Below are positions 12,275 to 54,161 of a DNA stretch of 64,000 nt, piece after piece. Source of the stretch: Candidatus Altiarchaeota archaeon (GTDB taxonomy: Archaea > Altiarchaeota > Altiarchaeia > IMC4 > SCGC-AAA252-I15); assembly GCA_043813075.1 (NCBI GenBank), contig JBDRLL010000003.1:54606-118605 (forward strand), written 5' to 3'. Position 1 is the first letter of the stretch, and the number at the start of each line of letters is the position of its first letter. The notes under the pieces were generated by a model that did not search any database, was not told where the DNA came from, and saw only the letters and a list, made by a program, of their open reading frames with translations. The translations under genes were made by a program, and so were the position numbers.

Positions 12275-12953
12275 ACGCTAGGGTGAACCTCCTCCTGAAA
12301 CGCTCAAACACCCTGAGCACATGAATGCTGAACACTGACATGAAGAATGCATTCCCAACCGCCCGCGAAGTGTTAGCCACCATGCCTGCAAGAACCATCG
12401 TCACATAAGACTCGATAGTGTGTGTCGGGATGAACAACAGCCATGAGAACAGGTCTAGGAACATGCCGTACGAGTATGCAGCCAGGATAGAGTACGCCAC
12501 CAGCGACGCGATCCTGAGCCTCCCACCGGCCTTAGGGATAAATGCGGCGAAACCACCGCACAATCCGAGGCCGAGCATCTGGAATGGAGTCCACGGGCCG
12601 TGGCCTATGAAGAAGTTCGACAGCATCATCGTCATCGAGCCGGCGGCGAATCCGGGCGCGAATCCGAAGACGTGTCCGACGAGTATTGTGAGGAAGAATA
12701 CGGGGCTGAATTCCACGCCGTGTATTATCTGCCTCGACAATACAGTGACCGCTACCAGCACGCTAAGCAGGCTTATCATCCTGGAATCATAGTTGCGCTC
12801 CTCAAAGTCCACGTAGAGTATGAGTATCACTAGGATTGTCAGGATTATCGCGTGCAACGCCCAGTTGAATGCTATCCCGTAGGGCTGGGTGAGCAGTGCC
12901 GTCAACGCCAGTAGTAGCGCATACAGTATTACCTTAATCGTTCCTGTCTTCAT
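12264..12953 (-). CDS. ECF transporter substrate-specific (S) component
   Basis: 229 aa, ~6 TM helices; first gene of an S-A1A2-T operon with overlapping stops/starts. Confidence 0.5.
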   Translation of the reverse strand: MKTGTIKVILYALLLALTALLTQPYGIAFNWALHAIILTILVILILYVDFEERNYDSRMISLLSVLVAVTVLSRQIIHGVEFSPVFFLTILVGHVFGFAPGFAAGSMTMMLSNFFIGHGPWTPFQMLGLGLCGGFAAFIPKAGGRLRIASLVAYSILAAYSYGMFLDLFSWLLFIPTHTIESYVTMVLAGMVANTSRAVGNAFFMSVFSIHVLRVFERFRRRFTLAYVD

Positions 12954-14313: not shown

Positions 14314-15163
14314 TGTAAGTTAAGGCTGGTAGCAGCAATACCGCTGCGGGAATCAATGCGATAACATTGAATGCTGGAAGAGCCATTGATTCGTAGGGCC
14401 AGAAATACATGCTGCCGGAGAATTTAAGGTATACTAGTGTTAGGAGTGATGAGGCATATGCCAGTGATATCATCCGGTCTGCGTTAGTCCAGCGCAGGGT
14501 CCTGTACCTGCTCCTCCTGCCGGAGTATGCTCTCGCAGCCATGGACTCTGATAGGTTGAAGCCTCGCTCTAGGGATGTGACTAGCGTCGGCAAAAGCAGG
14601 CTTATGTTGTTACTGAGCCGCTCGGACAAACTGCCGTCGTCGAACTTGAACCCCCTTGACTTCTGCGCGTCACGTATGGAAGTGAAGTCCTGGGTCACTG
14701 TGGGTATGAAGCGCAACGCTATCAACCCGGTCATCGAGATGGAGGTTATGCAAGAGGGTATTATGTTGACCAGTGAGTCGGGCGTCGTCTGGGAGTTGAA
14801 GACCTGGAATGCCACCAGCATGTCGACAAGCAGTAATGCCATTATAGCCCCCATGCCGACCGACTCCAGCGTGACCGGGCCGGATAGGAATAGCAGCGGG
14901 ATGTTTAGTCCAAACATGGGGATGTGCCGTGGAATCCTGTACAATACTGTGTTGCCGGAGTGCACTAGGAATATGTTCACTAGTAGTGGCATTATTGACA
15001 CGAGCAGTCCTATCTTCATGTAGGTCTTAACCGGTTGTTTCCTCACGACAGCCACCGTTGACAGTGCTATGAGCAGCAGAATCAGGTATGCTGGGTTGTA
15101 TGTGAGCATGCTGTAGGCGAAGGCGAGGGCCAGCCAGAGCAGCCATGTGACCGTGTTTGGCAT
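14297..15163 (-). CDS. ecfT: ECF transporter transmembrane (T) component, CbiQ family
   Basis: 288 aa polytopic membrane protein directly downstream of ecfA; ARAYSG/ERGF-like coupling-helix region. Confidence 0.7.
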   Translation of the reverse strand: MPNTVTWLLWLALAFAYSMLTYNPAYLILLLIALSTVAVVRKQPVKTYMKIGLLVSIMPLLVNIFLVHSGNTVLYRIPRHIPMFGLNIPLLFLSGPVTLESVGMGAIMALLLVDMLVAFQVFNSQTTPDSLVNIIPSCITSISMTGLIALRFIPTVTQDFTSIRDAQKSRGFKFDDGSLSERLSNNISLLLPTLVTSLERGFNLSESMAARAYSGRRSRYRTLRWTNADRMISLAYASSLLTLVYLKFSGSMYFWPYESMALPAFNVIALIPAAVLLLPALTYNGKRG

Positions 15164-37024: not shown

Positions 37025-38344
37025 ATGGGTTCATGCACGCTGATACTAAACTACGGGAGATGCGGTTGGGGTTCATGCCTCTTCTGCGGCTATGGAAGGT
37101 CATCGGGCAGGAAGCCTGACGTCGACGCATTAAAGAGGGAATTCGACGACTTCTTCGGAAAGATGGGGGAGGACGCGGAAGAAGTGAAGGTGTTCAGTTC
37201 CGGAAGCTTCTTGGACGACAGGCAGATACCGGCGGAAGCCAGGAGACACTTCATAGGGAAATGCATGGAGAAGGATATAAGGAGGGTGACTATAGAATCC
37301 CGCCCGGAATACGTCACAAAAGAAAAGCTCGAAGAATTCGAGGGGGTGAAGGTCACCCTGGCGATAGGATTAGAGTCCGCGGACAACCAGGTTCTTGAAA
37401 GGATAAACAAGGGATTCAGGAGGGAGGACTATGAGAGGGCTGCGGACATTGTGAAAAAGTCAGGGGGTGATGTTAGGACATATCTGCTCGTGAACCCGCC
37501 ATACGTGAAGGATGTCTGTAAGAGCGTGGATGATTCCGTTGAATACGCGTTAAAACACTCTGACAGCATAGTCCTGATAAACCTCCTCCCACACAGTAAC
37601 GCGCCGCTATTCAAGAAATGGGTTGCAGGAGAATGGAGCTTCCTAGATAGGAGAGGATTCGATGAGGCGACAGCCCGGTGGGCTGACAACCCTAAAATCG
37701 AACTGGATTATGAGACATTCAAGTTCACGCCGCAATTCCCAGACCATATGAAGACGCCGATAAATGGCGTTGGGGAGGAGTATCTGACACACCCCTATTT
37801 CGAGGCCTGGCAGGACTATCTGGACAGGTTCTACCAGCCGTCTGAACGGAAGAAGACGCTGCTCCTCCTACCATGCAGCTACAGGAAACCGTACAGCGAG
37901 TCAAAGACCCACAAGGAGATAATAGGGGTTATCGGGGAAATCGGCGGGAGAGACCGCATACACGAAGTCATGCTCAGTAATGCGGGAGTCATACCAAGAG
38001 AATTCGAGGACAGATACCCCTTCAACGCATACGATTGGGATGAGAGCCTGGAGACGCCGGAGATAAGGAAGAGGTATGTGCAAGTCACGTCAGAGAGAAT
38101 AGCCAACTATTTAAGAGCGCACGGAAAAAGATATGACAGGAAGGCCTGCTACCTCCGGAGAGCGTCGGACTCCCATCAGGCAGTCGAGAAGGCGTTCAAA
38201 GAGCTTGGTATGGAATTCGACAACCTGCTTTCCCCAGAAACCGACGGCAAACTAGATGGCGGGACAAGCGGCCTTAGGAAGCCGGAAGCGCTAGATGATT
38301 TGAGGGAGGGTTTAAGACGGCTACTGCAAAATTCCACGCGATAG
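37025..38344 (+). CDS. fusion protein: RaSEA-like radical SAM domain + ArcS-type C-terminal (PC-X3-KPY-X2-S-X2-H) domain; archaeosine biosynthesis
   Basis: N-terminus CGWGSCLFCGYG with a radical-SAM/TIM-like region; C-terminus LLLLPCSYRKPYSESKTH matches the ArcS signature motif. Confidence 0.55.
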   Translation: MGSCTLILNYGRCGWGSCLFCGYGRSSGRKPDVDALKREFDDFFGKMGEDAEEVKVFSSGSFLDDRQIPAEARRHFIGKCMEKDIRRVTIESRPEYVTKEKLEEFEGVKVTLAIGLESADNQVLERINKGFRREDYERAADIVKKSGGDVRTYLLVNPPYVKDVCKSVDDSVEYALKHSDSIVLINLLPHSNAPLFKKWVAGEWSFLDRRGFDEATARWADNPKIELDYETFKFTPQFPDHMKTPINGVGEEYLTHPYFEAWQDYLDRFYQPSERKKTLLLLPCSYRKPYSESKTHKEIIGVIGEIGGRDRIHEVMLSNAGVIPREFEDRYPFNAYDWDESLETPEIRKRYVQVTSERIANYLRAHGKRYDRKACYLRRASDSHQAVEKAFKELGMEFDNLLSPETDGKLDGGTSGLRKPEALDDLREGLRRLLQNSTR

Positions 38345-41144: not shown

Positions 41145-42611
41145 TCACACTGAATTATCCACGCCCTTAGACGGCTTAAATAGCAGGATAATGCGCAATA
41201 CGCGCAATAGAGGCTTCATCAAGGCATGGAACATTCTTGTTCTCCCGAACAGGAGGTGGGCTTTACCGCCGATTATCGCACGGTTTATCATCTTCCTGCC
41301 CACCGGGTTTTCATAGCTTGTCGCCAGGTTCTTCCTGAATATCCGCTTGTTGGACATACGTAGTACTTCTTCCGCTTTCTCTGTGTCGAAGCCTACCTTA
41401 CAGACGTATGACATGTGATCCCAGTAATCCAGGTCTGTTATGCCGACTTTCCCTTCCTCAAGGAATTCGTCCATAAGCCTGCCGTGGGGGGTGAACTTCT
41501 GGTAGACCACCATGCTGGGATTCACTTCGTCCATGAAGTCTGTCTTCTCGACTATCGAATCCATTGATTCCAGGGGAGAGCCGACTATCATGGAGGCTAT
41601 GACAAACACCCCGTTTTCAATCAGTATTGAGAACACCTCCTTGACTCGCAAGGCATCGTATCTCTTGCCGTAGTATCCCATTATCTCCTCGTTAACGTCC
41701 TCAATGCCGAAGAGTATGGCCTTCACCCCAGCCTCGCGAGCTAGGGGTATCAGGTCAGGGTGGCTTATGAACGTGTCGACCCTCGCCTGGATGCTCGCGT
41801 TGATATCCAGCTTCCGCTCTGAAATGAGTTGCAGCAGCCGCCTGGTCTTGGAGACGTCGCCGAAGAAGTTGTCGTCAGCGAACATCAGGTTTTTCACACC
41901 CATGCTCCGGGCATAGTATTCGATGTCTTCAGCCATGCGTTCGGGACTCCTTGTCCTGTATGGTGTGAAGAAGTCTTTTGAGGAGCAGAACAGGCATTTG
42001 TGGGGGCACCCCCGGGACCAGTCGACCAGTAGGAATGGTTTTTCACACCATACGAAGTCGTAGTCATTGACGTCTATCAGCCTGAAGTCCGGGCGGGGCA
42101 GGTCATCCAAGTCAACCGTATCCTGTCTCCCAGAGTATCTGACCGCGCCGTCCTCCAGATAGTAGACCCCCTTAACCAGGGAGACTGGCTTGCCTGAATC
42201 GATCGAGTCCACGAGGCTCTTGAAGACAAAGTCTCCCTCGCCGGAGACTATGTAGTCCATAACCCGGCCCTTGAGTAGTGATTCGAAGTCCCGGTCCCTG
42301 AAGAAGATGTAGCTGCCTCCTGCGACAATAACCATGGTGTCGTCGAGCTCACGCAACTCCCTTAAGAGCTTTAGTGATTTAGTGTATGAAACGGTGTGAA
42401 GCAGGCTTATGCCCAGCACCTGAGGCTTGAACTCCCTCACCGCGTCGAACAGGATGCTGTCACCGCAAGCAGTCAAGTCTATAAGACGCACTTCATGGTC
42501 AGGCTCAAGGATTGCGGCGATATACAGCAACCCTAGGGGCATCGCATTACCCAGAACTGATTCGACGTTAGAGTCGGGATTGACAAGTAAAACCCTCATC
42601 CTGGATAACAA
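41145..42611 (-). CDS. B12-binding domain radical SAM protein (class B), paralog 1
   Basis: N-terminal B12-binding Rossmann (RVLLVNP...MVIVAGG..YIVSGEGD) followed by SRGCPHKCLFC (CX3CX2C). Confidence 0.8.
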   Translation of the reverse strand: MLSRMRVLLVNPDSNVESVLGNAMPLGLLYIAAILEPDHEVRLIDLTACGDSILFDAVREFKPQVLGISLLHTVSYTKSLKLLRELRELDDTMVIVAGGSYIFFRDRDFESLLKGRVMDYIVSGEGDFVFKSLVDSIDSGKPVSLVKGVYYLEDGAVRYSGRQDTVDLDDLPRPDFRLIDVNDYDFVWCEKPFLLVDWSRGCPHKCLFCSSKDFFTPYRTRSPERMAEDIEYYARSMGVKNLMFADDNFFGDVSKTRRLLQLISERKLDINASIQARVDTFISHPDLIPLAREAGVKAILFGIEDVNEEIMGYYGKRYDALRVKEVFSILIENGVFVIASMIVGSPLESMDSIVEKTDFMDEVNPSMVVYQKFTPHGRLMDEFLEEGKVGITDLDYWDHMSYVCKVGFDTEKAEEVLRMSNKRIFRKNLATSYENPVGRKMINRAIIGGKAHLLFGRTRMFHALMKPLLRVLRIILLFKPSKGVDNSV

Positions 42612-44087
42612 TTATACTTTATCAAGGTATAAGCGCCTGGCCGCCCCCCATAATCTCCATTCCACAGGATGGTTGAAGTACCTCCGCCGCCACCTGGCTT
42701 CAGCTGAAATATTGAAGAGGTAGTGGAATACATCGTATGCAGCCACCATAAGACTGCTTCCCCCAAGCCACGCCTTCTTCACCTCCGGACCCCTGGAGGC
42801 CAGCCGCTCATGGAAGTGGGTGAAGCGGACTATGTTTGATATCGTATCCAACTGGGACTGGGCTTCCATGCTCATCCAGGGGAGACGCACGGAGTCGAAC
42901 CTCCATCCACCCCATTCTTCCAGGGAACCATGCACCATCATGCCCTGGGAGACCGCGGTTTCATGGATGGGCGTGCCAGGCTGGGGTATGAGCATCCATA
43001 GGTTACATACCTCCGTCCTAGGGTTCAGCCTCCTGAGCTCGTCCACCAGGCTGAGGGTCTTGGACAGGTCTCCTGGAGTCTCATCAGGCCAGCCGATGAT
43101 GAAGCTCACCATTGGCGTTATCCCATAGTCCCCGCACTTTCGGACAGAATCAGTTATCTGGCTGACTGTGATACCCTTCCCAATCCCGTCAAGTATCCTC
43201 TGGGAGCCTGACTCAGCGCCGAAAAACAGCGTCTCGCATCCGCTATCCCCCAGGAGTCTGGTGAACTCATCATCGTATCCGGAGAAATAGTCAGCCCTAT
43301 TATAGGCCATCCACTTCACGTCCCACCCCTCCCGTATTATCGCCGAGCAGATGCTCCGCATCCTCTCCTTGTCGACAAAGGAGTTGTCCTCCTGGAAGGT
43401 TATGCTGTTTGCGCCGACTTCTTCTATTATGTTCCTTAGCTCCTCCACCACAACCTCGGGTTTCTTCGCCCTCCAGCCGCCCTTGCTGTAGCAGTGGTTA
43501 AAGCAGAACGTGCAGTTGTGGGGGCATCCCCTGCTGGACTGGTAGGAGAAGTATTCCCTGCAGTCGATGTATTTACGCAAGTCCACCAGATCGTAGTGGA
43601 GGCTGCCTATGGCGTTCATGTCCGTGAAACCCCTCGGTGGGGTTGAGACGACAACCCCGTCTTTCTTGAATGCGATTCCGTTGACATCCTTTAGCGGACC
43701 CTCATCCCTGACAGTGTTGGCAAGCTCTATGATGGTTTCCTCGCCGTCACCACTGACGGCGATGTCGACGAGACTGCTGGCCGCAGTCTGCTCCGGCAGC
43801 ATCGTGGCGTGGGGCCCGCCCCATACTATCGGGATGTTTGGGTCTTCCTCGCGTATCATGCCTGCGACAGCGAGGCCGTGGCTTATCTGCGGCCCTGTCA
43901 TGGATGTTATGCCTGCCAGAAGATACTCGCCGTCGAGATGCTTGAGGTCTTGAATCCGTGTGTCCACGATTTTCGGGTCGTAACCAGCATTCCGGAGGAC
44001 TGTTCCAAGGTTTAGGAGCGGGAGCGGCATGTAGGGCGCCCTCTCTTTTTTTCCAGGGTATATCAGGAGTATTTTATCTGTCGCCAT
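42612..44087 (-). CDS. B12-binding domain radical SAM protein (class B), paralog 2
   Basis: DKILLIYPG..IVWGGPHATM..IAVSGDGE B12-binding domain, SSRGCPHNCTFC radical SAM; the start is moved to the internal MATDK Met (residue 44 of the ORF); contiguous with paralog 1. Confidence 0.8.
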   Translation of the reverse strand: MATDKILLIYPGKKERAPYMPLPLLNLGTVLRNAGYDPKIVDTRIQDLKHLDGEYLLAGITSMTGPQISHGLAVAGMIREEDPNIPIVWGGPHATMLPEQTAASSLVDIAVSGDGEETIIELANTVRDEGPLKDVNGIAFKKDGVVVSTPPRGFTDMNAIGSLHYDLVDLRKYIDCREYFSYQSSRGCPHNCTFCFNHCYSKGGWRAKKPEVVVEELRNIIEEVGANSITFQEDNSFVDKERMRSICSAIIREGWDVKWMAYNRADYFSGYDDEFTRLLGDSGCETLFFGAESGSQRILDGIGKGITVSQITDSVRKCGDYGITPMVSFIIGWPDETPGDLSKTLSLVDELRRLNPRTEVCNLWMLIPQPGTPIHETAVSQGMMVHGSLEEWGGWRFDSVRLPWMSMEAQSQLDTISNIVRFTHFHERLASRGPEVKKAWLGGSSLMVAAYDVFHYLFNISAEARWRRRYFNHPVEWRLWGAARRLYLDKV

Positions 44088-44127
44088 GCTTAATGTTTGA
44101 TGATTATTACAAGAGTACCATATAAAG
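44088..44127. promoter_or_regulatory. short divergent promoter region between B12-rSAM operon (minus) and Tes-like rSAM (plus)
   Basis: 40-nt AT-rich spacer (ttattacaagagtaccatataaag) between divergent starts. Confidence 0.35.
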
Positions 44128-45468
44128 ATGGAGTTGGGGAAAAGCAGGAGCCTCTGTCCCATATGCCTGAAGGAGATTGACGCGAGCATAATCCAGGATG
44201 ATGGGAGGGTGTTCATCTCTAGGGAGTGCGCTGCGCATGGATTGTTTGTTGACCCACACCTCTACGAGGATCCGGTCATATACAAGGCGCTCTCCAACAT
44301 GGACTGCGGCGGGGATGACGTCCTACCGGACACTCTAGTGTTCCACACTACACCAGCATGCAACATGGACTGCCAGTTCTGCCCTATACCAGGCGAGATG
44401 AGGTCTGGTGAAGGCCCTGAGATAGGTGAGATTATGGATGAGGTCTCCAGATTCCATGGGTCTACCATATTCCTGTGCGGGGGAGAGCCGACCATAAGGG
44501 GGGATTTGCCGGAGATAGTCGGGAAAATCTCAGGTGCAGGGAAGAATGTGCTGGTCTTCACCAACGGACTGAGACTAGCGGACAGGAAAAACGTGGATTC
44601 CCTCAAGGCCACAGGCCTGACCCAGGTCATACTCTCGTTCAGCACGTTTCAAGAGGAGAAGGACATTAAAGTCTACGGCTCCCGCGTCACTTCATTGAAG
44701 CTGAAGGCCTTGGAGAACCTGAAGGCCACGCTGACCCCGACCGGCTTCTCATTCCTAGTATTCAAGGACATTAACGAAGACGAGGTGGATAAGGTGATCG
44801 GATACGCGGTAGACAACCGGGAGTGGGTCAAGAGCATATGCTTTCAGGTGGTCTGGAGGCCTTCCGAAAGGGACTCCAGCATGGTGAAGCAGAAGGGGAT
44901 AATAGACCTTGTGCGAAAATCCGCTGGAATTGATGTTGAAGACTTCATAGAATGCACTGTCTTCGGCAGCACTGTGTCTGAGATTTTCAGGAGGATTACG
45001 GGCAGGGGTGGGCGCGTGTATTCCAGGTGCGAGCTAAGATGCCAGTCATGGGTGTCAGATGGACGACTTGTGCCATTATCCGGGATGATTGATTTGAAGA
45101 CTGTGAACGAATCGCTACGGAGAATTAACAGCCGCCTCAAGGGGTCAGCAGCCCGGAAGATTGGTGTGATGATCTTGTTTTTCCCTTACACAGAATTATT
45201 GAAGTCGTTCATATTCAACAGGGACTTCAGAAACTTCTGCCTTAGCAGGTTTTCAGGCATGCTCTCAGGTATAGTGCACGGCAGGATGTTCCGCGAGTCG
45301 TTGGGGAAGGACATGCTCGGATTCATGGTGGGGAGATATTATACCAGGTACAACATCGACTTGGGGTTGGCGGATACTTGCAGGTACTGCAGGTCTCCTG
45401 AGGGAAACGACATCTCATACTGCATATGCGATATGATAGGGTGGACTGAGAACAAGCAGACTGCTTGA
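44128..45468 (+). CDS. radical SAM protein, Tes/GDGT-MAS-like candidate (paralog A) with N-terminal Cys/His knuckle
   Basis: CPICLKEIDA...ECAAHG N-terminal motif; PACNMDCQFC (CX3CX2C); GGEPT glycine motif; ~445 aa. Confidence 0.55.
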   Translation: MELGKSRSLCPICLKEIDASIIQDDGRVFISRECAAHGLFVDPHLYEDPVIYKALSNMDCGGDDVLPDTLVFHTTPACNMDCQFCPIPGEMRSGEGPEIGEIMDEVSRFHGSTIFLCGGEPTIRGDLPEIVGKISGAGKNVLVFTNGLRLADRKNVDSLKATGLTQVILSFSTFQEEKDIKVYGSRVTSLKLKALENLKATLTPTGFSFLVFKDINEDEVDKVIGYAVDNREWVKSICFQVVWRPSERDSSMVKQKGIIDLVRKSAGIDVEDFIECTVFGSTVSEIFRRITGRGGRVYSRCELRCQSWVSDGRLVPLSGMIDLKTVNESLRRINSRLKGSAARKIGVMILFFPYTELLKSFIFNRDFRNFCLSRFSGMLSGIVHGRMFRESLGKDMLGFMVGRYYTRYNIDLGLADTCRYCRSPEGNDISYCICDMIGWTENKQTA

Positions 45469-45490
45469 TGAGCCGCTTGGTCCTGGTGAG

Positions 45491-46828
45491 TCATGGATTA
45501 TCTGATTCCCGCGACCGGAACACTTCCCTAAGGCAGAACGGAACGACTCTATCTCCCTCAAAGCCTCCGAGACTGCAGCAGGACATGAATTCATAATCCA
45601 CGTTTGACGCGTCAAAATACCTGTTAGCTATTATACTGCACACCTGAGGCAGCATCATTGTTATCGGATGGTCATTTTCCGCAATGATCTTCCATAATCC
45701 GGATGCGCTCGGCAGCATGAACAATATTGCGCGCGCGTCTCTGACGCTAGAGAGGAATGCGAGGATAGTCTTCACTAGGGCGCCTGCTTTCCCTGCTTTT
45801 CCATTGAAGTCTGTGCTAACGCTTATCTTGGATAGCCTTTCTGAGAGTGCCTGCATGTCCAGCAGATGGTTTAAAGGCGTTAGAGAATCCCCCATACGGA
45901 CTAGGTATAGCCGTAGGTAGCATGCTGAAACCCGCCTACCACCCCTCCCAGACATCTTTCGCATAAGCTGGCTGAAGCAGAAGCCGAACCTGGTGCACTC
46001 GAGGAAGTCTTCCAAGCAGGTTCCCAGATGCATGCATACCAGATCAGCGGACTTGCTTGCAGGCACTGAACGCCCCGCGTCATTCCCATTTGGATTCCAG
46101 TAGGATGAGAAAGCTAAACCCCTTATCCTACCCCTATGACGCCTCAAAAGTTCTATGAAGCCTGGAACCTGGTCCTCGTTTACGCCGTCCCGTAGGACAA
46201 CATTCAGGAAGACTGGTATGTCTAGTTGAAGTAGGTTTTTTAACGCCCCCATCTTCTTCCCGACCACTTCCTCGCCGTATAGCCGGATGCCCTGACCAGC
46301 ATCCAGTGTGTCCAATGAGAGCACTATCAGTGGCTTGTTTCTTGAGAATGAACTGGCATAATCCATGCTGCCCAGCCTAATCCCGTTGGTGAAGAATGAG
46401 GGATGATATCCCATAGACCTTAATTCACCTATTATCCCCGGCAGGTCGTCGCGCATGGTAGGCTCCCCGCCGAACAAGTATATTATGGAGCCGCCGAACC
46501 CAGCGGCAGTGGAGACTAATTCTTCCAGAGATATCGGATGTTCTTCCACCATGCCTTGAGGCTTAAAGCAGTCTGGGCAGTTCATGTTGCATAATCCGGT
46601 GACATCCAGAAAAGCAGTGTCCGGAGACCATTCACCGTCTTCAGGGTCGATGGCCAGGAGTGACTTCATTGACGCGTAGACTTGCTTGTCTTGGAAAACG
46701 TGCGGGCTCACTGAAGTGCCATGCTCCGGGCATTCCTGCCTTATGAACATTCTCCCGCCATCCTCGAAGACCGTTGCATCAACATCCCTCAAGCACTTCG
46801 GACAGATGCTCCGTGAATTTGATTCCAA
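45491..46828 (-). CDS. radical SAM protein, paralog B of 44128-45468
   Basis: CPKCLRDVDA...ECPEHG; GLCNMNCPDC (CX3CX2C); GGEPT; collinear similarity to paralogs A and C. Confidence 0.55.
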   Translation of the reverse strand: MESNSRSICPKCLRDVDATVFEDGGRMFIRQECPEHGTSVSPHVFQDKQVYASMKSLLAIDPEDGEWSPDTAFLDVTGLCNMNCPDCFKPQGMVEEHPISLEELVSTAAGFGGSIIYLFGGEPTMRDDLPGIIGELRSMGYHPSFFTNGIRLGSMDYASSFSRNKPLIVLSLDTLDAGQGIRLYGEEVVGKKMGALKNLLQLDIPVFLNVVLRDGVNEDQVPGFIELLRRHRGRIRGLAFSSYWNPNGNDAGRSVPASKSADLVCMHLGTCLEDFLECTRFGFCFSQLMRKMSGRGGRRVSACYLRLYLVRMGDSLTPLNHLLDMQALSERLSKISVSTDFNGKAGKAGALVKTILAFLSSVRDARAILFMLPSASGLWKIIAENDHPITMMLPQVCSIIANRYFDASNVDYEFMSCCSLGGFEGDRVVPFCLREVFRSRESDNP

Positions 46829-46940
46829 AAAAACCCCTCAAACACAGATTATGAGACAGGCAAGATATATTATTGTTAAGTTCTGATATTCAATAATATC
46901 AAGGGTGTACGCTAGTGCAAAGAATTTCCGAATGGTTTGA

Positions 46941-48605
46941 ATGAAAATCAGGTTGAGCTGCTTTAATCCGTTCTCATATAGCATAACCCCCCTCGGACTG
47001 GGATACAAAAACGCTTCCCACAACAACGCTGGACACGACTCTATGATACGCCTTTTTGAACGGGAGGAGTCAGCGTTCTACGACACACTGCTGTCGATGG
47101 ACTTTCTTGGGAAGAGATTCCCGCTAATATCGATACCAGAATACATACAACAGATCGAACTGGTGGAGAATGAAGTTTTCGCAGAGGAGCTCGGCTTCAT
47201 AGACAGGGGGGAGATGAACTACAGGTCCAGATTCCCCTCTGAAACAGAGAGGCTGGTTGGGATATGCGACTCCATAGCGGACAGCCTGTCAGGCAACAGT
47301 ATGGTGGGATTCAACATAACGTCAATAGCCATGGGACCGACACTATACATCTCGAAGGCAATTAGGGAGAGGGATGATGGCGTGAAGATAGTGTATGGGG
47401 GGCCGATAACAGACATGATGGCTGGAGTTTTAGACCCCATAAACGCCATGCACAAGTCCATCAACGAGTCAATGAGGAGTAGCGGCATATACGGGAGGTA
47501 CGCTGATTTTCTGGCTGGGAACGTCGACTTCCTGGTTCACGGTGAGGGTGAGGAGACTATTGTGGAAATTGCTAATGCGATTGATGATGGAGGTGACGCG
47601 GAGATACCGGGGACTACCGCCATCAGGGAGGGGTCTTTCAAGAGGAGTCGCCCTAGGAGGCCTGTTGACTTGGATGGGATATGCCGTCCAGACTTTGATG
47701 GCATAGACATGAGGACGTACGGGTATGTCACGTTCAACTTCTCCAGGGGTTGTATTAACGCGTGCACGTTCTGTGACGAGTGCCTGTTCTTCAAGGGCTA
47801 CAGAGTCAGGGATCCGGCAAAGGTTTTGGAGGAGTTGAGCGCCGGCTCAGAGAGATATCCTGGTAAAAGGTTTCTCGCGTGCGACAGCCTGCTGAACGGA
47901 GACCCTGCGAGGCTGAAGGAGCTCTGCAGGCTGATTACTGAGTCAGGGCTGCGTATAGACTGGAGCGGATACCTGCGGCTGCCTGAGACGGACGAGGAAC
48001 TAGTAGACCTGCTCTATGAGTCCGGTTTCAGGAGGCCGAAATTCGGTTTAGAGACCATCGACGATGGGGTCTATGAGGAGGTTGGCAAGCGGCAGGAGAC
48101 CGGTCACGCGCTTAGGATCATGGACTACTGCAGGAGGAAGGGCATGAAGGTGACCGCGAACTTCATGATCGGGTATCCGGGGAGGGGAATGGACTTCGAG
48201 CTGGAGGTGATGGATAGGGTTAAGGGCATACGAGGGCACTATGATTACATGCCGCTTGAATCGATAAACGTGGGTATAAGGTCGAGTGTCGCGAGCGACC
48301 CTGAGAGGTGGGGTTTCGAGATAAAAAGCACCCATGAATTCAGTGAGAGTGACTGGGAGTATTATACACTGGCAAGGTCGTATATCCCGGGAATCATAAC
48401 GTACACGAGGAATTCGCTGTCACGAAGCGAGGCTGAGAGGATATTCGAGGAATACAACAGGCACGGTCTTCTCAACAAGAGGGGGTTGGAGTATGGACTC
48501 CACAAGTATGGATTAGGATGGCTGAAAAAGTATAGGCGGTATATTCCGTTCAGCATATCCAACTGGCTTAAGCTCCAGTATCTTAAGGAGGAGATAATCA
48601 TTTGA
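46941..48605 (+). CDS. B12-binding domain radical SAM protein (class B), paralog 3
   Basis: KIVYGGP..LVHGEGEE B12-binding-like N-terminus; FSRGCINACTFC radical SAM core. Confidence 0.75.
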   Translation: MKIRLSCFNPFSYSITPLGLGYKNASHNNAGHDSMIRLFEREESAFYDTLLSMDFLGKRFPLISIPEYIQQIELVENEVFAEELGFIDRGEMNYRSRFPSETERLVGICDSIADSLSGNSMVGFNITSIAMGPTLYISKAIRERDDGVKIVYGGPITDMMAGVLDPINAMHKSINESMRSSGIYGRYADFLAGNVDFLVHGEGEETIVEIANAIDDGGDAEIPGTTAIREGSFKRSRPRRPVDLDGICRPDFDGIDMRTYGYVTFNFSRGCINACTFCDECLFFKGYRVRDPAKVLEELSAGSERYPGKRFLACDSLLNGDPARLKELCRLITESGLRIDWSGYLRLPETDEELVDLLYESGFRRPKFGLETIDDGVYEEVGKRQETGHALRIMDYCRRKGMKVTANFMIGYPGRGMDFELEVMDRVKGIRGHYDYMPLESINVGIRSSVASDPERWGFEIKSTHEFSESDWEYYTLARSYIPGIITYTRNSLSRSEAERIFEEYNRHGLLNKRGLEYGLHKYGLGWLKKYRRYIPFSISNWLKLQYLKEEIII

Positions 48606-49222
48606 CACATAGGGGAGAGCTTACCGGAGAATTGCCTGAACCCGACTGGGATGCGGTCTGGGGCAGGAATTTAGGCAAGAATCTGACGGTATTTAGGGTA
48701 TACTCTGGGCTCAGGTTCAGAAGCTATAGAAGACTGTTCAGTGGACTGGACCTGGAGGGTAGGGGGGTGCTGGAGATAGGGGGTGGGACAGGACAGTTAG
48801 GCAGCATGCTTGGGAGGGAATTCAAGTGCAATGTAACACTGATAGACGATAGTGAAGAGGCTTTCAGATTCCACTCCAGATTCGGCATAAAAGGGGTGGA
48901 TTATGTGAGGGGGGATGTCTTCAGGCATGAGGGAGTCTACCATCTAGTCTACAGTGACGGGCTTATAGAACACTACAGGGGCGCTAAGAGGGAGGATCTG
49001 ATACGGCGTCATTCCCTGTTATGCGGTGAGGGGGGTTACACCGCCTTTTTTGTGCCAAAAAAATCGTTTTTCGTTGACATGTTCCTCACACTCAGGGGCT
49101 ATTACGAGGAGAAGTACGACGTGGATGGCATCACTTCAGAGCTGGAGGAGAATGGCCTTGAGGTCCTCAAGACTGTGGAGGATTTCCATATGATAGGTGT
49201 GTTATGCGAGCAGAGGGGATAG
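48602..49222 (+). CDS. class I SAM-dependent methyltransferase
   Basis: VLEIGGGTGQLG (motif I), LIDDSEE (acidic motif II); overlaps both neighbours, so it is operonic. Confidence 0.65.
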   Translation: MTHRGELTGELPEPDWDAVWGRNLGKNLTVFRVYSGLRFRSYRRLFSGLDLEGRGVLEIGGGTGQLGSMLGREFKCNVTLIDDSEEAFRFHSRFGIKGVDYVRGDVFRHEGVYHLVYSDGLIEHYRGAKREDLIRRHSLLCGEGGYTAFFVPKKSFFVDMFLTLRGYYEEKYDVDGITSELEENGLEVLKTVEDFHMIGVLCEQRG

Positions 49223-50559
49223 CCTTTGAGGCAAGGACTAGGAGCCTCTGCCCAGTTTGCCTCAAGCAGGTGGACGCGAGCGTAAGGATTATTGAGGGTA
49301 AGGTCAGCATCAGCAAGGAATGCGACAAGCATGGCTCCTTCGAGTCGCCGCATTTTTGGGGTGATGAAGTGCTTTATCACGCGATGAAGAGGATAGCGGA
49401 CATGTGTGATGACGGGGTACCCCCGGACAACCTCGGGTTGTATCTCACACAGAAGTGCGATTTGAGTTGCAGCTACTGTTATCTGAAGGATAATGAGGAG
49501 GGGATGGAAGAGCCGAGCATAAGCGATGTCTTAGATTATGTGTCCGGATTTAAGGGGTCGACTGTCATACTAAGCGGGGGGGAGCCGACACTCAGGGACG
49601 ACCTGCCTGAGATAATCAAGGTGGTGCGGGAGAGAGGATACATGATTGTGCTCGCGACAAATGGCATGAGGCTTTCGAGAGAATACGTGGAAGACCTGAA
49701 GTCATGCGGTTTGGGCATGGTGATGCTGTCTTTCACGACCTTTAAGGAGGAATACTCAGAGAGACTGCAGGGCATCAACACTGTCGAGGCTAAGAGAAGC
49801 GCTGTAAGAAACCTTAATGACGCATGCATCCCATTGTTCCTCTACATTCCTGTTTTGAGGGGGGTGAACGACAGTGAGATAGGCGCATTCATAGATTACG
49901 CCAAATCCGTGAATGCGGTGAGGGCGGTTGACTTCAATGTGACAACACACCCAGGAGGATTCTCAGACAAGCTGACGCTCACACAGAAGGAGATTATCGA
50001 CGTGATAGGAGAGCATACTGGCGTTGGCGTTGAGGACTTTACGGACTGCACGTTATCCGTGCACCTTGCATCAGAGGCATTAAGGAAGGTATTAGGTGGT
50101 GGGAGGAGGAGTTCAGGATGTTATCTGAGACTATACTTCCTCAGGTCAGGGGAGGTCTTAAGTCCAGTGAGCGGGATTCTGGACTTGAAGTATGTTAACA
50201 TGAGGCTTCTATCAGCCAACGCTATCCTTGACTCGAAATCACCGCTCAGGAGAATCAAGGCGTTGAGCATCATCGCGGGATTGTTCCTATCAACCGCTTG
50301 GCGGAATCAGGAGGGGATGATGCTTTGTTCAAGTGTTGTCAGAAGCATTGCCTCCAGGAGAGGTGGCTCGTCTGCTGGCGGCGGATTACTATGCATTAAT
50401 GTTATGCGATTCAACGACCGCTTCAACGCTGACCTTGGTTTCACTCGGGCATGCTGCTCGCACAGCATCAGGAATGCTTCAGAGAAGCCAATGTGCGCGT
50501 GCATTAGGGAAATGTATTTCTGCAGGCCGCCTGTCTTTAAGAAAAGGAATCTAAAGTAG
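49204..50559 (+). CDS. radical SAM protein, paralog C of 44128-45468
   Basis: CPVCLKQVDA...ECDKHG; TQKCDLSCSYC (CX3CX2C); SGGEPT; ~450 aa. Confidence 0.55.
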   Translation: MRAEGIAFEARTRSLCPVCLKQVDASVRIIEGKVSISKECDKHGSFESPHFWGDEVLYHAMKRIADMCDDGVPPDNLGLYLTQKCDLSCSYCYLKDNEEGMEEPSISDVLDYVSGFKGSTVILSGGEPTLRDDLPEIIKVVRERGYMIVLATNGMRLSREYVEDLKSCGLGMVMLSFTTFKEEYSERLQGINTVEAKRSAVRNLNDACIPLFLYIPVLRGVNDSEIGAFIDYAKSVNAVRAVDFNVTTHPGGFSDKLTLTQKEIIDVIGEHTGVGVEDFTDCTLSVHLASEALRKVLGGGRRSSGCYLRLYFLRSGEVLSPVSGILDLKYVNMRLLSANAILDSKSPLRRIKALSIIAGLFLSTAWRNQEGMMLCSSVVRSIASRRGGSSAGGGLLCINVMRFNDRFNADLGFTRACCSHSIRNASEKPMCACIREMYFCRPPVFKKRNLK

Positions 50560-50565
50560 TGTATA

Positions 50566-52746
50566 ATGCAATTCTGGCGTGGGGGTATTGCAAGGGACTT
50601 GCTGTTCCTGGTCTGCCTTTCTGCGGTTATACTAGTCATCGGAGCATCCAGCATAAGGGAGAAGTCTCCAGTATGGGACGAACCATATTATGTTGGAGCG
50701 GGATACTACATGCTCAGACAGTGGGATAAACCGTGGATAAACTATACCAGCCTAGTTCCCATAATAACGCACCCCCCGCTACCGTATTACGTCAACAGCA
50801 TACCGTTCTACATATACGACTTGATTGGCGACTTCTCGGATGGAGGATTGTTTGATACAAATGAGAGCGAACTAGTCACGTATCCGCCACCAAGCGTGGA
50901 TGAGATATTGGATTTGAAGAGGGATTATCCTGAAAAATTCGGGCAGAGATTCATATACTCTGACGAATACGAGGAGTACGACCTCCTGTTCTACTCGAGG
51001 TGCTCGATGCTACTATTGCTGATACTATGCAGCACATACATGTTCGTGATTGCCAAGAGATACTACGGTTTCGAGACGGCCTGCGTGATAACCGCTTTAT
51101 TCTCGCTAAACCCGAGCATACTCGCACACGCCAGGCTGGCGACAACCGATATCGCTCCGGCATGCTTTAATCTCATATCATTCTACTACTTCACGCTTTT
51201 CATGGAGAGGAAGAGTCTGACGAGGGGTCTTGCTGTAGGCATAACACTCGGACTGGCCTTGCTCAGCAAGGAATCCAGCACCTACCTGCTGGCACTATAT
51301 TCCGCAATAGTATTCATCCGACTAGTGTCATGGTTTGTGTCGAGGGTCGTGCATGTAGTAAAGACTTGTTGTGGTCTTATGAGTGATAAAAACAGAATGT
51401 CCGAGTCCATCGCGTCGATGCTAACTTGGAGTAGGTTTAGGGGGAGCCTCCCGCTCTTAGGGCTCATAACGCTCATCTCACTGACAGGTGTTTCAGTATA
51501 CCATGGCGGGGAAAAAAGCACTATAGTATACGTTGTGGTGATAACGCTTTTCATGATCTTCTACTCTGAGGGGAGGAAGAGGGCTTTCATTGGTTTTGTC
51601 AGATGGTTTTTCCGGCTTTTGAGGTCGCTGACACCATACGCGATGATTGTTGTTTTAGCGACAACCACATTGAATGCGGGGTACTTGTTCACGGAGATAA
51701 ACTACGACTGGCTCGAGAACTGGGGGGGTATCCTGCTAAAGGACGTCCGCTTCTCGCAAGACGAGATGATGGATAGGAGCATTAGGGGTTATGCCCTTGG
51801 CTTGAGACTGCCTGTGTCAGACTACTACCTCTACACTATAATGAATACGCGAGTTCATATGAGGGTCGGGCACCCAAGCTACATAAAGGATGTTATAATC
51901 TCTAGTAGGGAGGTGGGCGAGATGAAACCCGGATTCGTGGAGGACGAGATGCTGAAGATAAGGGAGGGTGTTAGTGTGAAGAAGAGGATGGACTACTGGG
52001 TGACGCTATTCCTGATAAAAGCCCCTGAAGGGCTTCTGATACTGCTGCTCTTCTCGATATTCTACTTCTTCTCAAACCAATTCAAGAGGGGGATAGTCAA
52101 CGATAAGTTGACATGGTTCAGGACGTGCCTTGTGCTGAACATAATCACGGCCTGCATGATGATTCTCGCATCAACCATACTGATTGGCGTAAGACTTGTG
52201 TTATTCATATTTCCGCTATTGTATCTACTACTAGCGGAGCCGATGAAGGCTCTGCTGTCTGGCGGCAGAACCTCCAGGAGACTAGCATACATCATCATAG
52301 CATTATCGGTACTCCCAGCTGTCATATACCACCCGCACTACATCCCCTACTTCAATCAGTTGGTTGGCGGCCCGGAAAACGGATACACTTACGCTTCAGA
52401 CTCGAATGTTGACTGGGGTCAGGATTTGCCTGGCCTGAAGGAGTATATGGACGAGAAAGGCATTGACGAGATTAAACTGGCATACTTCGGGACCGCGAGG
52501 ATAGATGAGTATGGGATAGAGTATTTTTCACTGCCAAACAACCAGGGGATAGAGATGTTCTCTGGGCAGCGGAGTCCTGACGTGGAGTGCGGCCCTGTTG
52601 AGGGCATACTCGCAGTCAGCGCGACAAGCCTGACAGGGCAGTTCGGAGACCCCGGATGCTATGAGTGGCTTAGAGGCTACGAACCGATGGACAACATAGG
52701 ATATTCCATACTAGTCTATAACATCACCAATGCAACAGCAGGCTAG
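50566..52746 (+). CDS. GT-C fold membrane glycosyltransferase, PMT/ArnT (GT39/GT83)-like
   Basis: 726 aa, >10 TM helices; first-loop VWDEPYYVGAGYYM (DE motif) is typical of PMT_2/ArnT-family lipid-linked-sugar transferases; last gene of the rSAM operon. Confidence 0.55.
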   Translation: MQFWRGGIARDLLFLVCLSAVILVIGASSIREKSPVWDEPYYVGAGYYMLRQWDKPWINYTSLVPIITHPPLPYYVNSIPFYIYDLIGDFSDGGLFDTNESELVTYPPPSVDEILDLKRDYPEKFGQRFIYSDEYEEYDLLFYSRCSMLLLLILCSTYMFVIAKRYYGFETACVITALFSLNPSILAHARLATTDIAPACFNLISFYYFTLFMERKSLTRGLAVGITLGLALLSKESSTYLLALYSAIVFIRLVSWFVSRVVHVVKTCCGLMSDKNRMSESIASMLTWSRFRGSLPLLGLITLISLTGVSVYHGGEKSTIVYVVVITLFMIFYSEGRKRAFIGFVRWFFRLLRSLTPYAMIVVLATTTLNAGYLFTEINYDWLENWGGILLKDVRFSQDEMMDRSIRGYALGLRLPVSDYYLYTIMNTRVHMRVGHPSYIKDVIISSREVGEMKPGFVEDEMLKIREGVSVKKRMDYWVTLFLIKAPEGLLILLLFSIFYFFSNQFKRGIVNDKLTWFRTCLVLNIITACMMILASTILIGVRLVLFIFPLLYLLLAEPMKALLSGGRTSRRLAYIIIALSVLPAVIYHPHYIPYFNQLVGGPENGYTYASDSNVDWGQDLPGLKEYMDEKGIDEIKLAYFGTARIDEYGIEYFSLPNNQGIEMFSGQRSPDVECGPVEGILAVSATSLTGQFGDPGCYEWLRGYEPMDNIGYSILVYNITNATAG

Positions 52747-52749
52747 CGG

Positions 52750-53040
52750 CTATGCTTTGGAAGGAGTGTTCTGGAATCTGCTCCAGTAGGCTAGGGCAGA
52801 TACTGTCACCAAGATTATAACCAGGTAAGAGGTAAGTGAGGTTATGGCTATGCCAGCATTCTTGTTTATAAAGTATATTATAAGATGTGGTATCACACCC
52901 AGTATGGCGCTTAATCCGATCCTCTCGACTATACTGACGTCATTGCGCTTAGGGAATATTGCGAGGGATAGGGCGTACCCAGGGACGAATATGAACAAGA
53001 GGGAGATTATTGTGCCCCAGAATATGCTTTGACCGTCCAT
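52750..53040 (-). CDS. small membrane protein
   Basis: 96 aa, three TM helices. Confidence 0.35.
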   Translation of the reverse strand: MDGQSIFWGTIISLLFIFVPGYALSLAIFPKRNDVSIVERIGLSAILGVIPHLIIYFINKNAGIAITSLTSYLVIILVTVSALAYWSRFQNTPSKA

Positions 53041-53075: not shown

Positions 53076-54161
53076 TTAAAGCATGTCTGCAATGAAGAAG
53101 GGCGAGTAGGCGAGGAATTTGACCGCGAACCGGGGGTTGAAGGCTAGGCTGCTGATAACCCTTGACGCATAGTCCATGTCGCCCCCACTCTCAAGACTGC
53201 CCCTTACAGACTGGAGTAGGTCGAAGAGACGATCCAGACTCTTTGGTGAAAGCCCGGATAAGAAACGATGTATGAACAAGTGCATGAGAAGCTCGCGTCC
53301 GACCGCCCTCTTCCATTCGCGCTCGTATTGGTCGCTGAAAGCATATTCAGCAGCCAGACCGCCCATGACGATTCCGCCGCCGGTGGAAGCCTTCACCTGC
53401 CCTCCAGCATCCCCCACAGTCACCAGACCATCGTACTGCGTCCTCATCGACGGCTTGTGTATGGGTATTATCCCGTAGTGCTCGTCGAACACCGTGTCTT
53501 TTCTGAGGCGGCCTTCATCACGCAGTTTTTTCACGAATGCCTCCATGTAGGGCCTTGGATTTCTCTTGGTGCAGAGTCCGATGCGAGCACGGTCCCCGAT
53601 GGGTATGACCCATGCGAAGAAGTCAGGGACGGTGAAATACAATTCAGCGAAATCATTGTCGCATTCAACGTCCATCTCGTACTGCATTCCAATGAGGAAT
53701 TCGCTCGGCTTTTCAATGCCCATTGTGATGTGGAGTGAGTAGTCCGTTCCGGTGGCGAGGGCTATTCGGTCGGCCTTTATCTTGGAGCCGTCACTGGTGG
53801 ATATTGTGCCATTGACGTCAACCACGCGGCCGGTGGCCCGGACTGCTCCCGCATCAACTGCCTTGTTTAAGAGGTGGCCGTCAAAACCTATACGATCCAC
53901 CACACACGCCATCGTCTTGCCGCCATCAGCCTCGAACAGCACGCCCCCTGGAGAGTAGAACCTCGCGCCACGAATCCTGTTCAATATGAAATCCCCGTCA
54001 CTAACGCCCAGTCTCTCAAGTCCAGACTTGCTTATCAGGCCCGCACACTGGACCCTGCAGACGTCGCCGCCTATCAGCGCGACATCCATTGACTTGGCGG
54101 CGTGCGTTGCTGCGATACAACCTACGGGGCCTGCACCCACCACAGCAGCGTCATATTTCAT
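53076..54161 (-). CDS. ggr: digeranylgeranylglycerophospholipid (geranylgeranyl) reductase
   Basis: MKYDAAVVGAGPVGCIAA (FAD GxGxxG), ~360 aa, FixC/GGR family architecture. Confidence 0.85.
   Translation of the reverse strand: MKYDAAVVGAGPVGCIAATHAAKSMDVALIGGDVCRVQCAGLISKSGLERLGVSDGDFILNRIRGARFYSPGGVLFEADGGKTMACVVDRIGFDGHLLNKAVDAGAVRATGRVVDVNGTISTSDGSKIKADRIALATGTDYSLHITMGIEKPSEFLIGMQYEMDVECDNDFAELYFTVPDFFAWVIPIGDRARIGLCTKRNPRPYMEAFVKKLRDEGRLRKDTVFDEHYGIIPIHKPSMRTQYDGLVTVGDAGGQVKASTGGGIVMGGLAAEYAFSDQYEREWKRAVGRELLMHLFIHRFLSGLSPKSLDRLFDLLQSVRGSLESGGDMDYASRVISSLAFNPRFAVKFLAYSPFFIADML

Follow-up and report, generated by a model that had tools for sequence, protein, structure and literature searches.

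Three neighbouring genes for radical S-adenosylmethionine (SAM) enzymes, here called A, B and C, raise the question of which family they represent, how long they have existed side by side and on what substrates they act. The genes lie in a 64,000-nucleotide stretch of chromosomal DNA (hereafter the window) from a metagenome-assembled genome (MAG) of a Candidatus Altiarchaeota archaeon. We find that A, B and C arose by old duplications, have differentiated from one another and make up part of a separate branch, as yet without a name, of the family of tetraether synthase (Tes), also known as glycerol dialkyl glycerol tetraether (GDGT)-macrocyclic archaeol synthase (GDGT-MAS), and we refer to this branch as deltaN. 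What is new is a Tes-fold branch that has one Fe-S cluster fewer, lacks a Tyr that is invariant in Tes, mostly lacks a Met as well, and sits in a cassette conserved between archaea and bacteria; a search of the accessible literature for the branch or its cassette found no relevant paper.

Three collinear paralogs with one architecture

The genes and their conserved sites are as follows.

44128..45468, forward strand: paralog A, 446 amino acids, Tes-like radical SAM protein of the deltaN subfamily
44137..44250, forward strand: rubredoxin-like Cys3His domain of A (C10, C13, C34, H37; PF23545 at residues 4-41, E = 1e-13)
44359..44382, forward strand: CX3CX2C radical SAM motif of A (C78, C82, C85)
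45028..45423, forward strand: presumed C-terminal auxiliary-cluster Cys of A (C301, C418, C432; candidate fourth ligands C276 and C305)
45491..46828, reverse strand: paralog B, 445 amino acids, TTG start, Tes-like radical SAM protein convergent with A
46712..46819, reverse strand: rubredoxin-like domain of B (C9, C12, C33, H36; PF23545 at residues 4-39, E = 3e-13)
46568..46591, reverse strand: CX3CX2C radical SAM motif of B (C80, C84, C87)
49204..50559, forward strand: paralog C, 451 amino acids, Tes-like radical SAM protein, the third gene of an operon described below
49231..49347, forward strand: rubredoxin-like domain of C (C16, C19, C40, H43; PF23545 at residues 10-48, E = 1.6e-13)
49456..49479, forward strand: CX3CX2C radical SAM motif of C (C85, C89, C92)

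The three proteins align collinearly from end to end with 31-36% identity and 85 invariant columns, and pairwise tblastn among them within the window gives E values of 1e-58 to 1e-71, far past chance. No fourth Tes-like copy was found by tblastn within the 64 kb. All three share the Pfam architecture PF23545 followed by PF04055, with 51.0 (A), 49.6 (B) and 50.4 (C) bits for the former (gathering threshold 27) and 63.5, 46.2 and 92.6 bits for the latter (threshold 29.5). A first-pass annotation, made from the sequence alone, had described three collinear paralogs that share a C-P-x-C...E-C-x-x-H-G knuckle, the CX3CX2C triad (residues 78-85, 80-87 and 85-92) and a GGEPT block, and this description is borne out, GGEPT being an invariant SAM-binding motif in A, B and C. 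The conserved C-terminal Cys pair that it also listed survives in part: the first Cys, in an S-x-C-x-L-R block, is present in all three (A301, B303, C306), and the second is found only in A (C301/C305), its place being taken by Leu in B and C. Two further invariant C-terminal Cys had been overlooked (A418/A432, B418/B432 and C417/C433).

The N-terminal knuckle is the iron site of the Tes family

The best solved relative of the paralogs is GDGT-MAS/Tes of Methanocaldococcus jannaschii (MJ0619; 7TOL and 7TOM), which is also the best match of C in the PDB (E = 5.5e-40). Its crystal structure (7TOL) revealed four metal sites (Lloyd et al. 2022; PMC9433317): a rubredoxin-type mononuclear Fe ligated by C9-X2-C12-X20-C33-X2-H36, a cluster termed [Fe4S4]N that is held by C73, C77, C80 and a conserved His, the radical SAM cluster, and a cluster termed [Fe4S4]C that is held by three Cys and a labile Met439 (PMC9433317). 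The N-terminal knuckle of A, B and C has exactly the first of these spacings, C-X2-C-X20-C-X2-H, and the corresponding N-terminus of GDGT-MAS reads SLCPICLKRIPA...KKTCPEHGEF. Furthermore, PF23545 plus PF04055 and all four knuckle ligands are present in 120 of the 120 homologues retrieved by a word-index search, and the knuckle occurs in 97-98% of the deltaN subfamily members. Among aligned sequences, C9, C12 and C33 are conserved in 25 archaeal Tes and in 19-20 of 20 deltaN paralogs; H36 is conserved in all 25 and in 17 of the 20, with Asp in two.

Given its spacing, its Pfam match and its presence in all 120 homologues, the knuckle is a hallmark of the family rather than an oddity: it is the rubredoxin-like mononuclear iron site (Cys3His) that defines Tes/GDGT-MAS. 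The first-pass annotation was thus right that the extra Cys and His form auxiliary metal sites beyond the SAM cluster, and right in naming Tes/GDGT-MAS as the proper comparison. Its view of the knuckle as unusual does not stand in the face of a curated Pfam family and a crystal structure with identical spacing, and the alternative it had itself allowed, that the proteins match a well-known family, is what we find (Tes/GDGT-MAS, PF23545). By itself the knuckle is textbook for the family and adds nothing new. Like rubredoxin and zinc-ribbon knuckles, the domain is a small beta-sheet unit whose two CxxC-type knuckles bind a single metal ion; rubredoxin has Cys as the fourth ligand and is a free electron carrier, whereas the domain in A, B and C has His and is fused to a radical SAM enzyme. 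The C-terminal Cys do not belong to an established SPASM or twitch domain, in that no PF13186 match was found in A, B or C at E<=0.1 and their spacing of about 115 and 14 residues is unlike the CX2CX5CX3C-type pattern of SPASM.

The name of the Pfam family, HMPTM N-terminal zinc ribbon (Zn_ribbon_HMPTM), points to another identity, that of pterin C-methyltransferases (HMPT dimethyltransferases) in the synthesis of a methanopterin-type cofactor, and one homologue (P0119) is indeed labelled 7,8-dihydro-6-hydroxymethylpterin dimethyltransferase. The label, however, stems from MJ0619 itself, for which it was not corroborated by Lloyd et al., who re-assigned the protein as GDGT-MAS (PMC9433317). 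There are no pterin or folate genes at the locus, and a cofactor step gives no reason for having three to four paralogs at a locus alongside prenyltransferases. We therefore give a role in pterin synthesis next to no chance.

An AlphaFold2 model of C (predicted local distance difference test score 83.8, predicted template-modelling score 0.86) was compared with solved structures by Foldseek. The sole full-length match is 7TOL (TM 0.78, E = 3e-29), and one of the four domains of Tes, the [Fe4S4]N loop, is absent. The other matches, namely HydE, MoaA, viperin, PFL-AE and SPASM enzymes, are all confined to the SAM barrel, with a TM of about 0.37. A, B and C are thus Tes-fold enzymes of a separate branch. 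What they have in common with Tes is this predicted fold, short of the N-cluster loop, including a helical cap after the radical SAM barrel, along with the rubredoxin-like site, CX3CX2C, GGEPT and three invariant C-terminal Cys.

Missing cluster and active-site residues set the paralogs apart from Tes

The trait that distinguishes the three proteins lies in what they lack, and it escaped the first-pass annotation: [Fe4S4]N and Tyr459 are lost in all three, and Met439 is lost in A and B. Two CX3CX2C motifs occur within the first 180 residues of 116 of the 120 word-index homologues, and CPxxCGxCxxH, the motif of [Fe4S4]N, is the first of the two. The three paralogs and the three relatives nearest to them have only the radical SAM CX3CX2C and lack CPxxCGxCxxH. 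Consistently, 40-43 residues separate the rubredoxin His from the radical SAM motif in A, B and C compared with 61 in MJ0619, and the missing part of about 20 residues is the Cys-rich loop of [Fe4S4]N.

As a control, alignment columns were compared among 25 archaeal Tes from GTDB genomes, MJ0619, and 20 deltaN paralogs (A, B and C plus 17 from related loci). The [Fe4S4]N columns C73/C77/C80/H83 are occupied in 25 of 25 archaeal Tes and in none of the 20 deltaN paralogs, all of which have gaps there. Tyr459 is likewise present in 25 of 25 and absent from all 20, with Arg in A, Gly in B and Ser in C. At the Met439 column, Met is found in every archaeal Tes and in two deltaN paralogs, C and its orthologue; C alone of the three keeps it (M401), A having Gly and B Asn. 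Met439 and Tyr459 have been reported to be completely conserved across 1000 archaeal homologues (Lloyd et al.; PMC9433317). By comparison, C338, C455 and one final Cys are shared by all 25 archaeal Tes and all 20 deltaN paralogs.

Apart from C338, C455 and the last Cys, no C-terminal Cys is invariant among the 25 archaeal Tes; these three were therefore taken as the Cys ligands of [Fe4S4]C, and the three Cys retained in A, B and C are presumed, from this invariance rather than from the 7TOL coordinates, to bind the same cluster. The columns of C225, C438 and C456 are unconserved in archaeal Tes, so these residues are not ligands. C225 of MJ0619, which is Leu in A, B and C, had been considered as a lost ligand because it is invariant in bacterial homologues; it was rejected since only 12 of 25 archaeal Tes have it. 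We infer that each of A, B and C holds one Fe and two [4Fe-4S] clusters, as against one Fe and three in Tes.

A separate observation concerns the columns of A276 and A305 (window 44953-44955 and 45040-45042), where a Cys is found at one or both in 18 of the 20 deltaN paralogs. Judging from its recurrence in the alignment, this Cys may be a candidate Cys-for-Met swap that supplies the fourth ligand of the C-terminal cluster.

These differences bear directly on the possibility that A, B and C are true tetraether or macrocyclic archaeol synthases, that is, Tes isozymes that serve, for example, the extended C25-containing chains that have been reported from Altiarchaeota, with a different pair of chain ends coupled by each. 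The full-length fold match and the retained C-terminal cluster Cys are as expected for isozymes, and Tes paralogs of Methanosarcina are known to differ in product spectra (MA_1486 vs MA_1114; PMC8941075). Altiarchaeota are, moreover, the inferred source of iGDGT-0 and of unusual 'extended' tetraethers (iGTGT/iGDGT), for which the coupling enzyme has not been pinned down (PMC13003381). Besides the missing Tes-invariant sites, however, the scores speak against it. On the Tes equivalog NF045702, A, B and C obtain 127.7, 103.7 and 158.3 bits, about a quarter to a third of the cut-off of 450. Compared with 26 archaeal Tes (a small database, in which MA_1486 was not included), they show 25-30% identity at E values of 1e-32 to 8e-45, and thus fall short of the published working criterion for a Tes homologue (E<1e-50 and identity >30% to a confirmed Tes; PMC8941075), whereas genuine archaeal Tes are 41-67% identical to MJ0619 (E<=3e-121). 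Altiarchaeota, in addition, already have a canonical tes that is >50% identical to references (PMC13003381), so the deltaN paralogs are additional to the canonical tetraether synthase at the level of the phylum. We regard Tes isozymes as an unlikely explanation.

A distinct branch of archaeal and bacterial proteins

Membership in the deltaN branch was defined by a rubredoxin domain, a single CX3CX2C, the three C-terminal Cys, the absence of the N-cluster loop and of Tyr459, and a higher score on a subfamily hidden Markov model (HMM) than on Tes HMMs. For the deltaN HMM, 113 subfamily members were used, excluding anything >=40% identical to A, B or C. The first canonical set used for comparison was mostly bacterial (the bacterial N-cluster HMM) and scored MJ0619 about equally with the deltaN HMM, so an archaeal Tes HMM was added. 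The scores in bits are as follows.

A: deltaN 370, bacterial N-cluster 132, archaeal Tes 136
B: deltaN 325, bacterial N-cluster 124, archaeal Tes 113
C: deltaN 368, bacterial N-cluster 200, archaeal Tes 186
MJ0619: deltaN 368, bacterial N-cluster 396, archaeal Tes 672

All three paralogs thus belong to the subfamily, their 370, 325 and 368 bits contrasting with no more than 200 on either of the other models. A search of 1.84 billion representatives (50% identity) with a profile built from the six closest sequences then returned 971 proteins at E<=1e-30. The single-motif architecture is found in about 135 of the best 148 matches that could be retrieved, the first two-motif proteins appearing near rank 87, and the subfamily comprises at least about 130 clusters at 50% identity. 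The idea of a tiny clade, to which the word-index search with its three close relatives had pointed, was rejected on these numbers (well over a hundred 50%-identity clusters).

Named hosts are Candidatus Altiarchaeales, Nanoarchaeota MAGs and one Omnitrophota bacterium, and most members are metagenome proteins. A scan of GTDB species genomes recovered mainly canonical Tes and TrsS, and one close locus only, that of the Omnitrophota bacterium; the MAG of the window did not appear among its matches. The deltaN branch therefore reaches from Altiarchaeota and DPANN archaea to at least one candidate-phylum bacterium. Its presence in bacteria not known for archaeal lipids is unlike Tes, and that the same cassette stands in Omnitrophota is a further argument against Tes isozymes.

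Other radical SAM families invite comparison as well. The radical SAM (seleno)protein TrsS (NF045646) and other bacterial Tes homologues combine PF23545 with PF04055 as A, B and C do, and the HMM scores of A, B and C against them are comparable (117-166 bits). On the TrsS equivalog the individual values are 116.2 (A), 117.1 (B) and 166.0 (C), none reaching the cut-off of 490. Unlike the deltaN paralogs, TrsS-like proteins keep both the CPxxCGxCxxH motif of [Fe4S4]N and Met439, and have additional invariant Cys. Gms, the synthase of glycerol monoalkyl glycerol tetraethers (GMGT), and Mss, a bacterial membrane-spanning lipid synthase, are likewise radical SAM enzymes and couple one unactivated sp3 carbon of a lipid tail to another; an auxiliary cluster is believed to take part, and, as with A, B and C, they are found in clusters with B12-dependent radical SAM lipid modifiers. 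Gms is a radical SAM-SPASM protein without a rubredoxin domain (PMC13459092), and A, B and C have no SPASM match. Mss was reported not to be detectable by BLAST from Tes (PMC13159169) and would thus belong to a different family from A, B and C.

The extra invariant Cys of the bacterial N-cluster group, which includes TrsS-like proteins (P0005, P0008, P0013 and others), are absent from archaeal Tes. They lie directly after the [Fe4S4]N motif, at the column of MJ0619 S333, and in a Cys-Cys insertion near residue 361. As far as sequence conservation goes, they hint at a further metal or selenocysteine site in that group.

The branch is of interest beyond this locus. It lacks one of the four metal sites of the family and an invariant active-site Tyr, and it occurs in multi-paralog cassettes with prenyltransferase and B12-radical-SAM genes; as such it is a natural experiment on the role of the N-terminal cluster of Tes. 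Surveys of 'Tes homologues' that rely on loose BLAST or on Pfam architecture could miscount deltaN genes as markers of GDGT producers, which matters for lipid biomarkers.

Gene neighbourhood and age of the duplications

The Tes-like locus spans about 41.1-54.2 kb of the window. Apart from A, B and C, it consists of the following genes.

41145..42611, reverse strand: class-B (B12-binding) radical SAM protein 1 (PF02310 + PF04055)
42612..44087, reverse strand: class-B (B12-binding) radical SAM protein 2, divergent from A (PF02310 + PF04055; longest open reading frame to 44216)
46941..48605, forward strand: class-B-like radical SAM protein 3 (rSAM3), 554 amino acids, first gene of the operon and divergent from B (PF04055)
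48602..49222, forward strand: small SAM-dependent methyltransferase that overlaps both of its neighbours (Methyltransf_25/23 matches)
50566..52746, forward strand: GT-C-type (PMT/ArnT-like) membrane glycosyltransferase, 726 amino acids (PF02366, PF13231)
52750..53040, reverse strand: short DUF1616-like membrane protein (PF07760, 32.7 bits)
53076..54161, reverse strand: geranylgeranyl reductase family flavoprotein (TIGR02032 GG-red-SF, 164.3 bits vs a cut-off of 158.8)

A and B converge with 22 nt between them, and B and the operon diverge across an AT-rich spacer of 112 nt. Within the operon, which runs from rSAM3 through the methyltransferase and C to the glycosyltransferase, genes overlap or abut. 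The longest open reading frame of radical SAM protein 2 (42612-44216) overlaps A by 89 nt, yet its B12 domain and its homology begin only after an internal Met; the true start is therefore probably the ATG at 44087, which leaves a divergent spacer of 40 nt to A. Radical SAM proteins 1 and 2 have sub-threshold matches only, in the case of the first to BchE, HpnR and families of C-methyltransferases for peptides that are made ribosomally and modified post-translationally (RiPPs), and in that of the second to class-B families. The class-B matches of rSAM3 in NCBIfam start at about residue 190. A scan for bacterial-type promoters and terminators yielded hits at background level, the consensus being bacterial and uninformative for an archaeon.

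Related loci with Tes-like genes of the deltaN branch were collected from metagenomes and MAGs.

L001 (ENA metagenome): two Tes-like genes, one truncated; rSAM3 69%, methyltransferase 65% and C 56% identical to those of the window
L002 (ENA metagenome): two Tes-like genes; PMT-type glycosyltransferases, one of them 44% identical to the GT-C enzyme of the window, a methyltransferase and an acyltransferase
L003 (JGI metagenome): two Tes-like genes; gene order UbiA, methyltransferase, Tes-like; many radical SAM and methyltransferase genes
L004 (Omnitrophota MAG): two Tes-like genes in tandem; UbiA, two B12-dependent radical SAM genes; an 11-gene operon with nine radical SAM genes
L084 (Ca. Altiarchaeales): four Tes-like genes; a 555-amino-acid rSAM3 orthologue, UbiA, PMT, methyltransferase
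L085/L086 (MAG): three Tes-like genes; UbiA, at least six B12-dependent radical SAM genes, GT2
L087 (archaeon): three Tes-like genes; UbiA, two GT4
L088 (Nanoarchaeota MAG): two Tes-like genes; UbiA, two B12-dependent radical SAM genes, GT2
L089 (JGI metagenome): three Tes-like genes; UbiA, a B12-dependent radical SAM gene, two GT2
L090 (JGI metagenome): one Tes-like gene; UbiA, two B12-dependent radical SAM genes, two PMT_2, two GT2

Ten independent contexts of at least 10 kb were tallied, comprising the window and nine loci, with L001 left out for its short length and L086 as a duplicate of L085. Two or more Tes-like paralogs are present in 9 of the 10, a UbiA prenyltransferase in 8, a B12-dependent radical SAM gene in 7 and a glycosyltransferase in 8. 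The deltaN branch thus differs from Tes, a single gene, in having 2-4 paralogs per locus together with UbiA and B12-dependent radical SAM genes. Individual neighbours recur too. The rSAM3 and methyltransferase orthologues of L001 occupy the same positions as in the window, as does the rSAM3 orthologue of L084 (53% identity). In L003 a methyltransferase gene likewise lies directly upstream of a Tes-like gene, the GT-C homologue of L002 stands beside Tes-like genes, and PMT-family genes occur in L084 and L090. The richest cassette seen is that of L084 (7243-12729; GCA_014727915.1), in which four adjacent deltaN paralogs are followed by the rSAM3 orthologue and UbiA.

The first-pass annotation had read the three genes as a local paralog expansion. 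As a recent event this is contradicted by the related loci, since for every one of the three a closer orthologue exists in a different Altiarchaeota genome: A pairs with L084_10001 (43%) and L002_10001 (38%), B with L084_11356 (46%) and C with L001_1882 (56%), according to a neighbour-joining tree without bootstrap and to best-match identities. L084 also shares the order A(+)-B(-)-rSAM3(+). Because of these orthologue pairs and the conserved order, the duplications are old; they predate the split of these Altiarchaeota lineages, and A, B and C are a stable multi-enzyme set.

The abundance of radical SAM and B12-dependent genes brings up the further possibility of a secondary-metabolite cluster rich in radical SAM/B12 C-methyltransferases, in which A, B and C would be maturases of a ribosomal peptide or of another non-lipid natural product. 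Below threshold, the class-B radical SAM proteins do match RiPP C-methyltransferase families (TIGR03975, ApyD), and radical SAM-SPASM genes occur in L003, L004, L085, L087 and L090, with open reading frames of 48-61 amino acids nearby in L003 and L090. In the window itself, the intergenic gaps around the paralogs measure 22-112 nt and leave no room for a precursor gene, and Pfam detects no peptide-recognition (RRE) domain in A, B or C. The recurrent partners are, moreover, UbiA prenyltransferases, geranylgeranyl reductase and membrane glycosyltransferases, and the sole full-length structural relative is a lipid-binding enzyme. Peptide maturation is therefore a very improbable role for the paralogs.

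The small open reading frames just mentioned (48, 55 and 61 amino acids, at L003 9987-10133 and L090 17502-17862) stand beside radical SAM-SPASM genes near the Tes-like cassette, and could be the peptide precursors of an adjacent RiPP module.

Proposed function

Weighing fold, retained motifs and gene context together, we think it probable, with some reserve, that the deltaN paralogs carry out radical C-H activation and coupling on isoprenoid lipid chains as part of a conserved cassette, and that they are most likely not canonical tetraether synthases. The partners, namely prenyltransferase, geranylgeranyl reductase-type reductase, membrane glycosyltransferases and B12-dependent radical SAM proteins, point to an isoprenoid lipid or glycolipid as the substrate. 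B12-dependent radical SAM enzymes such as Grs and Gmm methylate or cyclise archaeal lipids, and genes for lipid-modifying radical SAM enzymes are known to cluster (gms-grs-gmm; PMC11214058).

By analogy with Tes (PMC9433317; reviewed in PMC13459092), a deltaN enzyme would cleave SAM reductively, and the resulting 5'-deoxyadenosyl radical would take a hydrogen from an unactivated carbon of the lipid chain under the hydrophobic helical C-terminal cap. The substrate radical would be parked on the C-terminal cluster as a C-S adduct until a second SAM turnover makes the partner radical and closes a C-C or similar bond. The rubredoxin domain, located at the surface in Tes (PMC9433317), is probably the electron entry point, and in the deltaN branch electrons would pass on from it without an intermediate [Fe4S4]N. 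Tyr459 of Tes sits 4.2 Å away from the substrate's terminal carbon (PMC9433317), hence its loss suggests another substrate register or another target carbon. Within the locus, A, B and C may act at different positions or steps alongside their partners, of which the three class-B radical SAM proteins would be responsible for methylation or cyclisation, the geranylgeranyl reductase homologue for saturation and the GT-C glycosyltransferase for the head group; the small methyltransferase would act in the same pathway.

Several points weigh against an activity of this kind. Tyr459 is lost, as is Met439 in most members, and the chemistry may therefore differ from that of Tes. The Cys ligands of [Fe4S4]C in 7TOL were deduced from invariance, not from coordinates, and the neighbour-joining tree that pairs the paralogs has no bootstrap support. 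No UbiA gene was found in the window by tblastn with five cassette UbiAs, and in NCBIfam the cassette UbiAs obtain only weak sub-threshold matches and no named equivalog. The radical SAM-SPASM genes and small open reading frames of some related loci could indicate peptide products, the question of a canonical Tes in this MAG was seen through 64 kb only, and a product or activity is on record for none of the deltaN members.

A more far-reaching proposal, which we hold as tentative and rather doubtful, is that deltaN arrays together with divergent UbiA, class-B radical SAM proteins and glycosyltransferases form a pathway whose end products are isoprenoid lipids of a class not yet assigned, with one C-C bond made per paralog. 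In such a pathway, each paralog may form a different C-C bond on inert carbons with two Fe-S clusters and the rubredoxin iron. The products might be the 'extended' tetraethers attributed to Altiarchaeota, or else membrane-spanning lipids of a new kind, cross-linked or cyclised, made by DPANN archaea and Omnitrophota. If this holds, orphan lipid biomarkers would have a genetic marker in the cassette. In any case the cassette provides concrete candidate genes for lipid modifications that have no assigned enzyme.

Other features of the window

The locus is flanked by archaeal housekeeping genes, among them those for the primase large subunit, PCNA, class I LysRS, Hef, HerA, RuBisCO and purine synthesis. 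Neither tRNA genes nor any Rfam family at threshold were detected in the window (1-64000). The DUF1616-like open reading frame of 96 amino acids (52750-53040) covers only the first third of the DUF1616 profile (length 307), and is either a short membrane protein or a gene remnant. A homologue of the RuBisCO large subunit is encoded at 4870-6132 on the reverse strand (PF00016 + PF02788, E = 8e-99). At 37025-38344 on the forward strand lies a 439-amino-acid protein with a radical SAM domain and DUF5591, unrelated to the Tes-like genes. The reverse strand at 12934-15163 encodes a duplicated ABC ATPase and a CbiQ-type transmembrane component, that is, an energy-coupling factor (ECF)-type transporter for cobalt or a vitamin, which is notable beside the several B12-dependent radical SAM proteins of the same region.

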